Below are positions 31,228 through 35,714 of a stretch of DNA of 64,000 nt, one piece after another. Made by a program: the position numbers and the translations under genes. This DNA comes from Escherichia coli (lineage in GTDB: Bacteria > Pseudomonadota > Gammaproteobacteria > Enterobacterales > Enterobacteriaceae). Location of the stretch: the NCBI RefSeq assembly GCF_003019035.1, contig NZ_CP027447.1, one strand, 5' to 3'. How positions within the stretch are numbered: position 1 is the stretch's first letter; each line of letters starts with the position of its first letter. The notes under the pieces are model-generated. The model was given only the letters and a program-made list of their open reading frames with translations, did no database searches and was not told the DNA's origin.

Positions 31228-32652
31228 ATGCAACATAAGTTACTGATTAACGGAGAACTGGTTAGCGGCGAAGGGGAAAAACAGCCTGTTTATAATCCGG
31301 CAACGGGGGACGTTTTACTTGAGATTGCCGAGGCATCCGCAGAGCAGGTGGATGCTGCTGTGCGCGCGGCAGATGCAGCATTTGCCGAATGGGGGCAAAC
31401 CACGCCGAAAGCGCGTGCGGAATACCTGCTGAAACTGGCGGATGTTATCGAAGACAATGGTCAGGTTTTTGCTGAACTGGAATCCCGTAATTGTGGCAAA
31501 CCGCTGCATAGTGCGTTCAATGATGAAATTCCGGCGATTGTCGATGTCTTTCGCTTTTTCGCTGGTGCGGCGCGCTGTCTGAATGGTCTGGCGGCAGGTG
31601 AATATCTCGAAGGCCACACATCGATGATCCGTCGCGATCCGGTGGGGGTGGTGGCCTCTATTGCCCCGTGGAACTACCCGCTGATGATGGCGGCGTGGAA
31701 ACTGGCTCCGGCGTTGGCGGCAGGGAATTGTGTGGTACTCAAGCCCTCGGAAATCACGCCCCTCACTGCCCTGAAGCTGGCTGAGCTGGCGAAAGATATC
31801 TTCCCGGCAGGCGTGATTAACGTACTGTTTGGCAGAGGCAAAACGGTGGGCGATCCGCTGACCGGACATCCCAAAGTGCGGATGGTGTCGCTCACGGGCT
31901 CTATCGCCACTGGGGAACACATCATCAGCCATACCGCGCCGTCCATAAAGCGTACTCATATGGAACTTGGAGGCAAAGCACCAGTGATAGTTTTTGATGA
32001 TGCGGATATTGAAGCAGTGGTCGAAGGTGTACGTACTTTTGGCTATTACAATGCCGGACAGGATTGTACAGCGGCTTGTCGGATCTATGCGCAAAAAGGT
32101 ATTTACGATACGCTGGTGGAAAAACTCGGTGCTGCAGTGGCAACGTTAAAATCGGGTGCACCGGCTGAAGAGTCTACGGAGCTTGGACCTTTAAGCTCGC
32201 TGGCGCATCTCGAACGCGTCAGCAAGGCGGTAGAAGAGGCGAAAGCGACAGGGCACATCAAAGTGATCACCGGTGGTGAAAAGCGCAAGGGTAATGGCTA
32301 TTACTATGCGCCGACGCTACTGGCTGGCGCATTACAGGATGATGCCATCGTGCAAAAAGAGGTATTTGGTCCGGTAGTGAGTGTTACGCTCTTCGACAAC
32401 GAAGAACAGGTGGTGAACTGGGCGAATGACAGTCAGTACGGACTTGCATCCTCGGTATGGACGAAAGATGTGGGCAGGGCGCATCGCGTCAGCGCGCGGC
32501 TGCAATATGGTTGTACCTGGGTCAATACCCATTTCATGCTGGTAAGTGAAATGCCGCACGGTGGGCAGAAACTTTCTGGTTACGGCAAGGATATGTCACT
32601 TTATGGGCTGGAGGATTACACCGTCGTCCGCCACGTCATGGTTAAACATTAA
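31228..32652 (+). CDS. patD: Gamma-aminobutyraldehyde dehydrogenase
   Basis: 474-aa aldehyde dehydrogenase (ELGGKAP, catalytic Cys context); synteny after ydcV. Confidence 0.9.
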
Positions 32653-32748
32653 GGATAATATTGCAGATCGTAAGAGTATGAGATGATCTTGCGTACTGTC
32701 AGAGCACTGATTTCTCTGACAGTACGTGCTGCGTGCAAAATCACTACA

Positions 32749-32844
32749 TCAAATAAACCAGCCAAATCTCATAGAGATAAGAGTAAACAAACCAACAGCA
32801 GCAAAGACATTTATCAGTACTACAGTTCTACTGGAAACATTCAT
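32749..32844 (-). CDS. yncL: Small membrane protein YncL (31 aa)
   Basis: Minus-strand translation MNVSSRTVVLINVFAAVGLFTLISMRFGWFI; below the ORF track cutoff. Confidence 0.7.
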   Translation of the reverse strand: MNVSSRTVVLINVFAAVGLFTLISMRFGWFI

Positions 32845-33038
32845 TTTTGCCACCTTTTATCATTGCCCCTATGTGTATAGTACGGGTTAAGAAAATCCGC
32901 AATAATACTCATTCTGAAGATGGATAAGGGCAAGTTGCTGTTTGATGATTTTTTCTCAAACGGGTGAAAAAACTTGATGCACGTCAAAAAATGACGCATA
33001 TTTGCGCGCGTTTTATTCATCTGGCTGGACGCCCGTAC

Positions 33039-33212
33039 ATGTCTCTCTATCAACACATGCTTGTTTTTTATGCGGTTATGGCAGCAATCGCATTTCTTAT
33101 CACCTGGTTTCTTTCTCACGATAAGAAACGCATCCGTCTCTTAAGCGCCTTTCTGGTGGGGGCAACATGGCCGATGAGTTTCCCGGTGGCGCTGTTATTT
33201 TCACTGTTTTAA
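33039..33212 (+). CDS. ortT: Small membrane toxin OrtT (57 aa)
   Basis: ORF 32964-33212; start at MSLYQHMLVFYAVMAAIAFLITWFLSHDKK gives 57 aa; two predicted TM segments. Confidence 0.8.
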   Translation: MSLYQHMLVFYAVMAAIAFLITWFLSHDKKRIRLLSAFLVGATWPMSFPVALLFSLF

Positions 33213-33297
33213 ATCTTACGCACTGGCTTGACGGCACCACGCAGACTTATATCATTTGGATGAATCGATAAATTTCACAAGTGGCTAAGGAGAAAGT

Positions 33298-33531
33298 ATG
33301 TCGCATCTGGATGAAGTCATCGCGCGCGTGGATGCCGCGATTGAAGAGAGCGTCATTGCCCATATGAACGAATTATTAATCGCCCTGAGCGATGACGCGG
33401 AGTTAAGTCGGGAAGATCGCTACACCCAGCAGCAGCGTTTGCGCACAGCGATCGCCCATCACGGTCGCAAACATAAAGAAGATATGGAAGCGCGCCACGA
33501 ACAGTTAACCAAAGGTGGCACCATCCTCTGA
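33298..33531 (+). CDS. ydcY: Small conserved protein YdcY
   Basis: 77-aa ORF; synteny. Confidence 0.8.
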   Translation: MSHLDEVIARVDAAIEESVIAHMNELLIALSDDAELSREDRYTQQQRLRTAIAHHGRKHKEDMEARHEQLTKGGTIL

Positions 33532-33981
33532 TTAAAATGTGCGCCTGGCCACCAGCCAGGCGCCAACCACAAGTAAAATTGCGCCACAAATTGGGCCGAA
33601 CAACGCCCGTAGTGGTACGCCATGACTGCGAAAGATATCCAGCACCAGACCGCCAATCAACTGGCTGGCGACCAGTACTGCAATAGTTGTCGCCGCTCCC
33701 ACATTCTGATATCCGCTGATACTGGCGAAGACAAAAAACGATCCCAGCAAGCCAGGTATAAGTGTCCACCATCGCACGCTGGACACCAGTTCGCCAAACC
33801 CCGCCATACCTTGTTTAAACCATAAAATAGAAACAAAGAGCACAATCCCCACCAGTGAGTTCAGCAACATGGCGATGAGAATGGTAGAGGAGGTCTGGGT
33901 GATGCGCACCATCAGCGTGTTCTGGACTACCAGACCAATTCCGGCGGCAATCAAAAAAGCAAGGGTGAGCGACTGATTCAT
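33532..33981 (-). CDS. ydcZ: DMT-superfamily inner membrane protein
   Basis: 149-aa hydrophobic ORF; overlaps the mnaT start by 4 nt. Confidence 0.85.
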   Translation of the reverse strand: MNQSLTLAFLIAAGIGLVVQNTLMVRITQTSSTILIAMLLNSLVGIVLFVSILWFKQGMAGFGELVSSVRWWTLIPGLLGSFFVFASISGYQNVGAATTIAVLVASQLIGGLVLDIFRSHGVPLRALFGPICGAILLVVGAWLVARRTF

Positions 33982-34496
33982 CCAATCGCGTCCGGTTCAG
34001 TGCGTTCGTCGAGTTGCAACTGCATAAATGTCAGATCCAGCCAGCGCCCAAATTTAGTGCCCACCTGCGGCATTTGCGCGGTGACGACAAATCCCAGCGA
34101 CTGGTGGAGATGCAGCGAAGCCTGATTTTGCGATTCGATCCCGGCGACCATGACATGCTTCCCGCAATCCCTCGCTTCATCAATCAATCGGCTTAACAAT
34201 TTACGCCCAAGACCTTTGCCCTGATGATCGGGATGGACATAAATCGAATGTTCCACGGTATGGCGAAAACCATCGAAACTACGCCAGTCGCCAAACGAGG
34301 CATATCCTGTAACTACGCCATCTTCTTCACTCACCAGCACCGGATAACCTGCTAAAGTCCGCGCTTCGAACCAGGCAATGCGGTTATCTGCATCCACCGT
34401 TTGGTCATTCCAGATAGCCGCCGTATACAACACGGCGTGGTTATAAATTTCCGCAATGGCAGCACAGTCGGCTTTGCGGGCAAAACGGATGGACAT
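33978..34496 (-). CDS. mnaT: L-amino acid N-acyltransferase (GNAT)
   Basis: ORF 33978-34730; start at MSIRFARKADCAAIAEIYN gives 172 aa; GNAT motifs. Confidence 0.85.
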   Translation of the reverse strand: MSIRFARKADCAAIAEIYNHAVLYTAAIWNDQTVDADNRIAWFEARTLAGYPVLVSEEDGVVTGYASFGDWRSFDGFRHTVEHSIYVHPDHQGKGLGRKLLSRLIDEARDCGKHVMVAGIESQNQASLHLHQSLGFVVTAQMPQVGTKFGRWLDLTFMQLQLDERTEPDAIG

Positions 34497-34676
34497 GTCT
34501 GGCCTCGATAAAATAATGATGGTGATGTTATCAATACTATCGAAAACAGCCCGAAGCAACGGATTCCTCGATGAAATTATTGCGTGCTGCAGAGGGGATG
34601 TGACGGCTGCAAACAAAACCATTCCTGCGAGCCTGCTACTATTGATGGATTCATGCCAAAAGCACAGGAGAGCATT

Positions 34677-35714
34677 ATGGGGCAACAAAAGCAGCGTAAC
34701 CGCCGTTGGGTTCTGGCCTCGCGTCCGCATGGCGCACCGGTTCCGGAGAATTTCCGTCTTGAAGAAGATGATGTCGCCACACCGGGTGAAGGACAGGTGT
34801 TACTGCGCACAGTTTATTTGTCCCTGGACCCGTATATGCGTGGACGTATGAGCGATGAGCCATCTTATTCACCGCCGGTTGATATTGGCGGCGTGATGGT
34901 CGGCGGTACGGTGAGCCGTGTCGTGGAGTCGAATCATCCTGATTACCAGCCTGGCGACTGGGTGCTGGGCTACAGTGGATGGCAGGACTATGACATATCC
35001 AGTGGTGATGAACTGGTGAAACTTGGCGATCATCCGCAAAATCCATCGTGGTCGCTGGGTGTGCTGGGGATGCCAGGCTTTACTGCTTATATGGGCCTAC
35101 TGGATATCGGTCAGCCTAAAGAGGGCGAAACGCTGGTGGTTGCGGCGGCGACAGGACCAGTAGGGGCGACGGTGGGGCAAATCGGCAAACTTAAAGGTTG
35201 TAGAGTGGTTGGGGTGGCCGGCGGCGTGGAAAAATGCCGCCATGCTACTGAGGTGCTGGGCTTCGATGTTTGTCTTGACCATCACGCGGATGATTTTGCC
35301 GAACAACTGGCGAAAGCGTGCCCAAAAGGTATTGATATCTATTATGAAAACGTGGGCGGTAAGGTATTTGATGCAGTGCTACCTTTACTTAATACATCTG
35401 CGCGCATTCCCGTTTGTGGCTTAGTGAGCAGCTATAACGCTACAGAGCTACCACCCGGTCCGGATCGTTTACCTCTGTTGATGGCTACGGTGCTGAAAAA
35501 ACGTATTCGCTTGCAAGGATTTATTATCGCTCAGGATTATGGTCACCGCATCCATGAGTTTCAGAAGGAGATGGGGCAATGGGTGAAAGAGGATAAAATT
35601 CACTATCGTGAACAAATTACCAACGGTTTGGAGAATGCCCCACAGACGTTTATTGGCCTGCTGAACGGCAAAAACTTCGGTAAAGTTGTTATTCGCGTCG
35701 CGGATGATGATTAA
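34677..35714 (+). CDS. curA: NADPH-dependent curcumin/enone reductase (MDR family)
   Basis: ORF 34584-35714; start at MGQQKQRNRRWVLASRPHG gives 345 aa; Rossmann motif AAATGPVG. Confidence 0.88.
   Translation: MGQQKQRNRRWVLASRPHGAPVPENFRLEEDDVATPGEGQVLLRTVYLSLDPYMRGRMSDEPSYSPPVDIGGVMVGGTVSRVVESNHPDYQPGDWVLGYSGWQDYDISSGDELVKLGDHPQNPSWSLGVLGMPGFTAYMGLLDIGQPKEGETLVVAAATGPVGATVGQIGKLKGCRVVGVAGGVEKCRHATEVLGFDVCLDHHADDFAEQLAKACPKGIDIYYENVGGKVFDAVLPLLNTSARIPVCGLVSSYNATELPPGPDRLPLLMATVLKKRIRLQGFIIAQDYGHRIHEFQKEMGQWVKEDKIHYREQITNGLENAPQTFIGLLNGKNFGKVVIRVADDD

Follow-up and report, generated by a model that had tools for sequence, protein, structure and literature searches.

The yncL-ortT locus of Escherichia coli: two divergent genes for small membrane proteins between patD and ydcY

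Introduction

The gap between patD and ydcY of Escherichia coli poses the question of which of its very short open reading frames (ORFs) are genes. The DNA analysed here, referred to throughout as the window, is a stretch of 64,000 nucleotides from an E. coli contig (NZ_CP027447.1). A mechanical ORF list held 45 ORFs, each 20 aa or longer, that overlap the 2-kb stretch around the gap, so that an ORF of the size of yncL or ortT is, by itself, no evidence for a gene. A preliminary description of the window had nevertheless proposed two small membrane-protein genes in this gap, yncL on the minus strand and ortT on the plus strand, and had described the product of the latter as an orphan membrane toxin. 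We have asked whether the two frames are genes, where they start, how they may be expressed, and whether their products, each with a published effect on the membrane, might work together. Our conclusions on frames, starts and conservation come from comparison of sequences, while the physiological roles of YncL and OrtT are taken from published overexpression experiments, and what is said of translation, toxicity, depolarisation and regulation is likewise taken from papers.

Identity of the locus

The genes that define the locus have the following positions in the window.

31228..32652, patD, gene for a 474-aa aldehyde dehydrogenase, with its stop codon at 32650..32652
32749..32844, minus strand, coding sequence of yncL, 31 aa, translation MNVSSRTVVLINVFAAVGLFTLISMRFGWFI
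33039..33212, plus strand, coding sequence of ortT (= ydcX), 57 aa, translation MSLYQHMLVFYAVMAAIAFLITWFLSHDKKRIRLLSAFLVGATWPMSFPVALLFSLF
33298..33531, ydcY (DUF2526), ORF of 77 aa

The region 32749-33212 thus runs from the stop codon of yncL to the stop codon of ortT, and the gaps between patD and yncL, yncL and ortT, and ortT and ydcY measure 96, 194 and 85 bp, respectively. A 751-bp stretch of the locus is 100% identical to E. coli SCU-301. At an identity of at least 95% the same stretch was found in 5,415 of 5,426 complete E. coli genomes, with at least 80% of its length retained in 5,405. The order patD, yncL (minus), ortT (plus), ydcY, ydcZ, mnaT, curA is common to the best-matching record and K-12 MG1655, where the counterparts of the two small genes, b4598 (yncL) and b1445 (ortT), have the same placement between patD and ydcY. 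Every listed RefSeq record spanning both genes, K-12 included, annotates them under these names. The mechanical ORF over the nearby mnaT (33978..34730) is 250 aa long, compared with 172 aa (519 bp) in the annotation, and represents the longest ORF extended beyond the annotated start.

YncL of the window shares 30 of its 31 residues with the K-12 protein, which has the same locus, strand, length and position between patD and ortT. The one difference is at residue 13, which is V in the window and F in K-12, and which is V, F, L or I across species. OrtT shares 56 of 57 residues with K-12 OrtT (YdcX), again with the same locus and length, and differs at residue 34, where the window has L and K-12 has F. 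L34 is also found in Enterobacter, Raoultella, Pluralibacter, Kosakonia, Buttiauxella and Dryocola, as well as in GhoT. The genes of the window are therefore the E. coli orthologues themselves, beyond mere relatives. The coordinates, strands, lengths, names and patD-ydcY placement given in the preliminary description were all borne out by RefSeq, by the family models and by the literature. The 31-aa yncL is present in the RefSeq annotation; both genes have already been annotated and experimentally studied in E. coli, and the finding as such is already known. No observation spoke against this identification, and we conclude that this is almost certainly the ordinary yncL-ortT locus of E. coli, with two divergent, independently characterised genes for small inner-membrane proteins.

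Family membership and membrane topology

YncL matched the NCBIfam equivalog model NF000537 (YncL) with 72.5 bits against a cutoff of 35, residues 1-30 aligning with positions 1-30 of the 30-position profile. A Pfam search with the 31-aa peptide gave no match; PF28073 (YncL) is assigned to yncL orthologues in public gene calls. Hydropathy and charge analysis (GRAVY 1.39) placed a single uncharged hydrophobic stretch at residues 7-25, flanked by R6 and R26. YncL resembles YohP, another of the stress-induced single-pass small membrane proteins of E. coli, in its size and its single transmembrane helix, and like YohP it is induced in stationary phase and brings about depolarisation and nucleoid condensation (PMC12542507). 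The two are encoded at separate loci, and more detailed work exists on YohP, including its effect on magainin-2 oligomerisation.

OrtT matched Pfam PF10753 (Toxin_GhoT_OrtT) over all 55 profile positions (1-55) with 97.4 bits against a cutoff of 22.1. Its hydropathy profile contains two hydrophobic segments with a charged loop, H27-D-K-K-R-I-R33, between them. An AlphaFold2 model, for which 30 sequences were aligned, has helices at residues 3-26 and 30-56, at moderate confidence (mean pLDDT 69.9), and transmembrane segments had previously been predicted at residues 6-26 and 34-54 (PMC4344625). A search of the PDB returned no OrtT relative with a solved structure, and a search of a phage collection returned no OrtT homologue. 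With one hydrophobic segment in YncL and two in OrtT, the earlier wording of single- or double-pass peptides holds, and the designation of OrtT as an orphan membrane toxin agrees with the RefSeq annotation, with PF10753 and with the study that described it (PMC4344625).

In that study, overproduction of the K-12 allele of OrtT led to growth arrest, membrane damage, a drop in ATP and cell lysis, while cells deleted for ortT stayed metabolically active under trimethoprim and sulfamethoxazole (PMC4344625). The substitution F38R weakened the toxicity of both GhoT and OrtT (PMC4344625). Both F38 and I21 are present in OrtT of the window, as they are in K-12; across the family position 38 varies and may be F, V, I, L or A.

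Start codons

The mechanical ORF list extends both genes upstream, giving yncL as 34 aa from a GTG start (32749..32853) and ortT as 82 aa from a GTG start (32964..33212). The start codon of yncL is preceded by a strong ribosome-binding sequence.

32850..32856, minus strand, Shine-Dalgarno sequence AAGGTGG of yncL, 5 nt before the ATG

AAGGTGG was found before yncL in all Escherichia, Salmonella, Citrobacter and Raoultella loci, with ACGGAGG in its place in Pluralibacter. The in-frame GTG three codons upstream of the ATG lies inside this Shine-Dalgarno sequence and is out of frame in E. whittamii and in other species. The same conclusion on the start had been reached for yncL of Salmonella (PMC5437024).

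The ATG of ortT at 33039 has a weak Shine-Dalgarno sequence or none, which would fit the low translation of a toxin. In public gene calls ortT very often comes out too long, at 63-97 aa where 57 would be correct, since GTG or TTG codons of the same frame sit within the promoter region; many automatic calls fall at 77-97 aa. These long database entries, the weak Shine-Dalgarno sequence at 33039 and the mechanical ORF could be taken together to mean that the true product of ortT is the 82-aa protein starting from the GTG at 32964. This we consider very improbable. In Buttiauxella, Dryocola, Enterobacter, Citrobacter and one Raoultella-type locus stop codons close the upstream frame 6-16 codons ahead of the ATG, and where it is open it displays no conservation at the protein level. 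The Pfam match to the 82-aa form starts only at residue 29, the added stretch runs over the conserved promoter-like elements described below, and a change of the start codon from ATG to ACG abolished toxicity, leaving the mutant harmless (PMC4344625). Given the upstream stop codons and the lack of protein conservation, both the 82-aa form and the database calls of 63-97 aa are over-extensions, and ortT is read here as the 57-codon gene from 33039.

Conservation and selection

Frames were compared across 17 loci, and dN/dS was calculated against the window sequence. In all 17 loci ortT has 57 codons and an ATG start. Wherever it was found, that is in Escherichia spp., Salmonella, Citrobacter, Raoultella/Klebsiella and Pluralibacter, yncL is intact, with 30-31 codons and an ATG start. 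For ortT dN/dS ranged from 0.05 to 0.29, and for yncL from 0.07 to 0.29, also in comparisons with synonymous sites close to saturation. Third codon positions vary most in both genes, the variable columns at codon positions 1, 2 and 3 numbering 14, 7 and 23 in yncL and 35, 19 and 51 in ortT. Both frames are under purifying selection. Conservation in related genomes, whose absence the preliminary description had named as evidence against the two genes, was thus found for both frames across genera.

This conservation is missed when the locus is approached from ydcY. Among 80 loci from different species fetched with ydcY as anchor and a 3-kb flank, yncL and ortT lay within 3 kb of ydcY only in the six Escherichia loci and in none of the 74 loci outside Escherichia. 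The resulting picture of non-conservation outside Escherichia was rejected as an artefact of the 3-kb flank, the orthologues being found through direct lookup of OrtT homologues. Salmonella and Citrobacter have an intact yncL-ortT pair downstream of their patD orthologue, and the next genes after ortT are srfC/srfB. In Enterobacter, Pluralibacter and Kosakonia ortT is followed by an alpha/beta-hydrolase gene and then srfC. Extra genes after ortT presumably put ydcY outside the 3-kb flank in these genera, with no fetched locus spanning both. Among the genera examined, ortT adjoins ydcY (window 33212..33298) only in Escherichia.

Two other readings of the same DNA were considered. One is that the region is a non-coding small RNA, known as STnc1110 in Salmonella, with an incidental frame of 31 codons. 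The yncL mRNA does appear in small-RNA interactome data, where its recorded partners are the small RNAs RprA and KilS. However, the frame, its length, its ATG and its strong Shine-Dalgarno sequence are conserved, the low dN/dS values point the same way, and no Rfam family matched in the region. The protein itself has moreover been followed: a translational lacZ fusion of the Salmonella gene is expressed (PMC5437024), His-tagged YncL has been immunodetected in E. coli (PMC12542507), and tagged YncL derivatives served as substrates for RseP-dependent cleavage in vivo, which was not reproduced in vitro (PMC10470546). Translation of YncL was first shown by Hemm et al. 2008, 2010, as reported in PMC12542507 and PMC5437024. 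With protein detection published, the small-RNA reading, to which we would give hardly any weight, is refuted.

The other reading would have the real gene lie opposite yncL, as a plus-strand antisense ORF at either 32683..32880 (65 aa) or 32726..32890 (54 aa). Both are open in E. coli, and one is called as an 81-aa gene in Citrobacter. In Raoultella and Pluralibacter, however, the 65-aa frame is interrupted by stop codons where it overlaps yncL. The 54-aa frame, whose wobble positions coincide with those of yncL, lacks a conserved start and stays open no further than yncL itself extends. No family model matched either frame, and it is the minus-strand frame that the HMM match and the experiments support, so that we regard an antisense gene as next to impossible. 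The coding sequence at this position is yncL.

Putative promoters and a hairpin between patD and yncL

Comparison of the intergenic sequences pointed to three candidate signals.

32874..32902, minus strand, putative yncL promoter, with -35 element TTGCGG (32902..32897), 17-nt spacer, -10 element TATACA (32879..32874) and C at -13
32974..33002, plus strand, putative ortT promoter, with -35 element TTGATG (32974..32979), 17-nt spacer and -10 element CATATT (32997..33002)
32691..32727, no strand, inverted repeat with a 14-bp stem and a 9-nt loop, between the convergent stop codons of patD and yncL

The promoter assignments are based on resemblance to consensus and on conservation, and both elements should be read as candidates. 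Upstream of yncL the CTATA and CGCAAT blocks are invariant in eight sequences from five genera. The -10 region resembles a sigma-S promoter, which fits the finding that expression of yncL (STnc1110) requires sigma-S in Salmonella (PMC5437024). Upstream of ortT the blocks CTTGAT and GCATA(T/A)TT are conserved in Escherichia, Salmonella, Citrobacter, Pluralibacter, Enterobacter and Dryocola, and partly in Buttiauxella. A promoter and terminator scan of the region returned chance-level matches only and flagged neither of the conserved promoter-like elements. The ortT element agrees with the consensus at 8 of 12 positions and was left unreported because this falls below the scan threshold of 9.

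The inverted repeat folds with -22.5 kcal/mol on the plus strand and -21.6 kcal/mol on the minus strand (z of about -4.6), and none of 200 shuffled sequences was as stable. When E. coli was aligned with E. whittamii, E. albertii, Salmonella and Citrobacter, 10 of 17 aligned pairs were kept by changes on both sides. No U-tract accompanies the hairpin at 32691..32727 on either strand. The hairpin is probably a structure shared by the 3' ends of the patD and yncL mRNAs, and may act as a bidirectional 3'-end or processing element. The patD-yncL pair has been listed among overlapping convergent transcripts, or excludons (PMC12288877).

OrtT and toxin-antitoxin systems

A further point of comparison for OrtT is GhoT, which is likewise 57 aa long and belongs to the same Pfam family, with two hydrophobic helices and the conserved F38. 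OrtT of the window is 65% identical to K-12 GhoT by our computation, and PMC4344625 gives 63% for OrtT and GhoT. In K-12, ghoS lies immediately upstream of ghoT in one operon, whereas the neighbours of ortT are yncL and ydcY, and no ghoS-type gene is present. GhoS fails to neutralise OrtT, and GhoT and OrtT respond to different stresses (PMC4344625). Thus, in contrast to ghoT, which follows ghoS, ortT has no ghoS-like neighbour, and OrtT is a member of the GhoT/OrtT family that stands outside the type V toxin-antitoxin system.

[quoted passage not shown] The Rfam scan gave no family match in or near yncL and ortT, and the putative 5' untranslated regions of the genes, that of ortT included, folded no better than shuffled sequence. 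A construct with both intergenic regions that flank ortT did not reduce toxicity (PMC4344625). The searches for an OrtT antitoxin in the same study, which covered YdcY, GhoS, the flanking intergenic RNA and a genomic library of 2.9-fold coverage, all failed (PMC4344625).

The association of yncL with ortT

YncL and OrtT could be envisaged as a functional two-gene module for membrane depolarisation, with YncL modulating OrtT as antidote, co-toxin or assembly partner, in which case OrtT would be no true orphan. The arrangement of the genes is what suggests it. In all five genera that proved to have yncL (Escherichia, Salmonella, Citrobacter, Raoultella/Klebsiella and Pluralibacter), it is divergent from ortT with a spacer of 179-198 bp, although the outer flanking genes differ. 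When 1.84 billion representative proteins were searched exhaustively, only nine YncL-like entries emerged; the named members of the YncL clusters are all Enterobacteriaceae, and each of the three diverged full-length representatives that were looked up adjoins ortT. The study that named OrtT an orphan cloned only 217 bp upstream of ortT, taking in about seven codons of yncL, and used a library of no more than the coverage given above, so that the YncL protein was never directly set against OrtT (PMC4344625). This was the only paper found that mentions both genes.

One representative that had looked like a diverged YncL (P0126, from Logan contigs L095, L096 and L097) was rejected as a variant. 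All of its differences are C-to-T changes on one strand, and the adjacent ortT has many stop codons where Trp is expected; the source contigs look like bisulfite-converted or damaged, deaminated E. coli reads.

Against a module stands the distribution of ortT, which is found without yncL in Enterobacter, Kosakonia, Dryocola/Cedecea, Buttiauxella and on Pantoea megaplasmids, so that OrtT does not need YncL. Overproduction of YncL, moreover, itself depolarises the membrane and lowers viability (PMC12542507), unlike what would be expected of an antidote. Genes 194 bp apart remain neighbours by default, which makes adjacency weak evidence, and the sample consists of five genera only. For these reasons (the existence of OrtT without YncL, the depolarising activity of YncL itself and the default persistence of close neighbours) a functional link between the two proteins is unlikely, and we would give it only a small chance of being right. 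The preferred account remains that of two neighbouring genes with independently characterised products.

Several loci carrying ortT alone have features of their own. Kosakonia cowanii (L098 3001..3470) has two tandem ortT paralogues, 84% and 68% identical to OrtT of the window, and no yncL. In Buttiauxella (L086 3609..3797) a gene encoding a 62-aa DUF1508 protein occupies the place of yncL, convergent with patD and divergent from ortT. A match to the GhoT/OrtT family was found in 95 plasmid records, 78 of them from Pantoea and 93 of them non-mobilizable; these were Pantoea megaplasmids, mislabelled E. coli chromosomes or other large non-mobilizable replicons. On plasmid p33.1_1 of Pantoea agglomerans (L101, 528 kb) the ortT-type gene lies amid stress genes encoding manganese catalase, a ferritin-like protein and a DUF892 protein. 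A 57-aa ORF after the Pantoea ortT copy was considered as a paralogue and rejected, as it aligned poorly and began with a lipoprotein-like signal.

Proposed roles and significance

According to Hemm et al. (2008, 2010), as cited in PMC12542507, minimal medium, heat shock and stationary phase all induce YncL. Its production depolarises the membrane, condenses the nucleoid and makes cells hypersensitive to magainin-2 (PMC12542507). Taken with the comparisons above, these reports give the following account. The 31-aa single-pass YncL peptide is made from a probably sigma-S-type promoter when cells are stressed, enter stationary phase or grow in minimal medium; produced early, it brings about a sublethal membrane depolarisation, which entails nucleoid condensation and reduced protein synthesis. 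OrtT, a two-helix hairpin, on overproduction damages the membrane, lowers ATP and lyses the cells, and it slows growth in stringent-response stress, as imposed by trimethoprim and sulfamethoxazole, with no antitoxin found.

If YncL did influence OrtT, the label of orphan toxin would change, and two small depolarising peptides would be joined in one stress module. The significance of the present findings lies mostly in annotation quality: yncL, which at 31 codons would be lost to a length filter, is a real, selected and experimentally supported gene.
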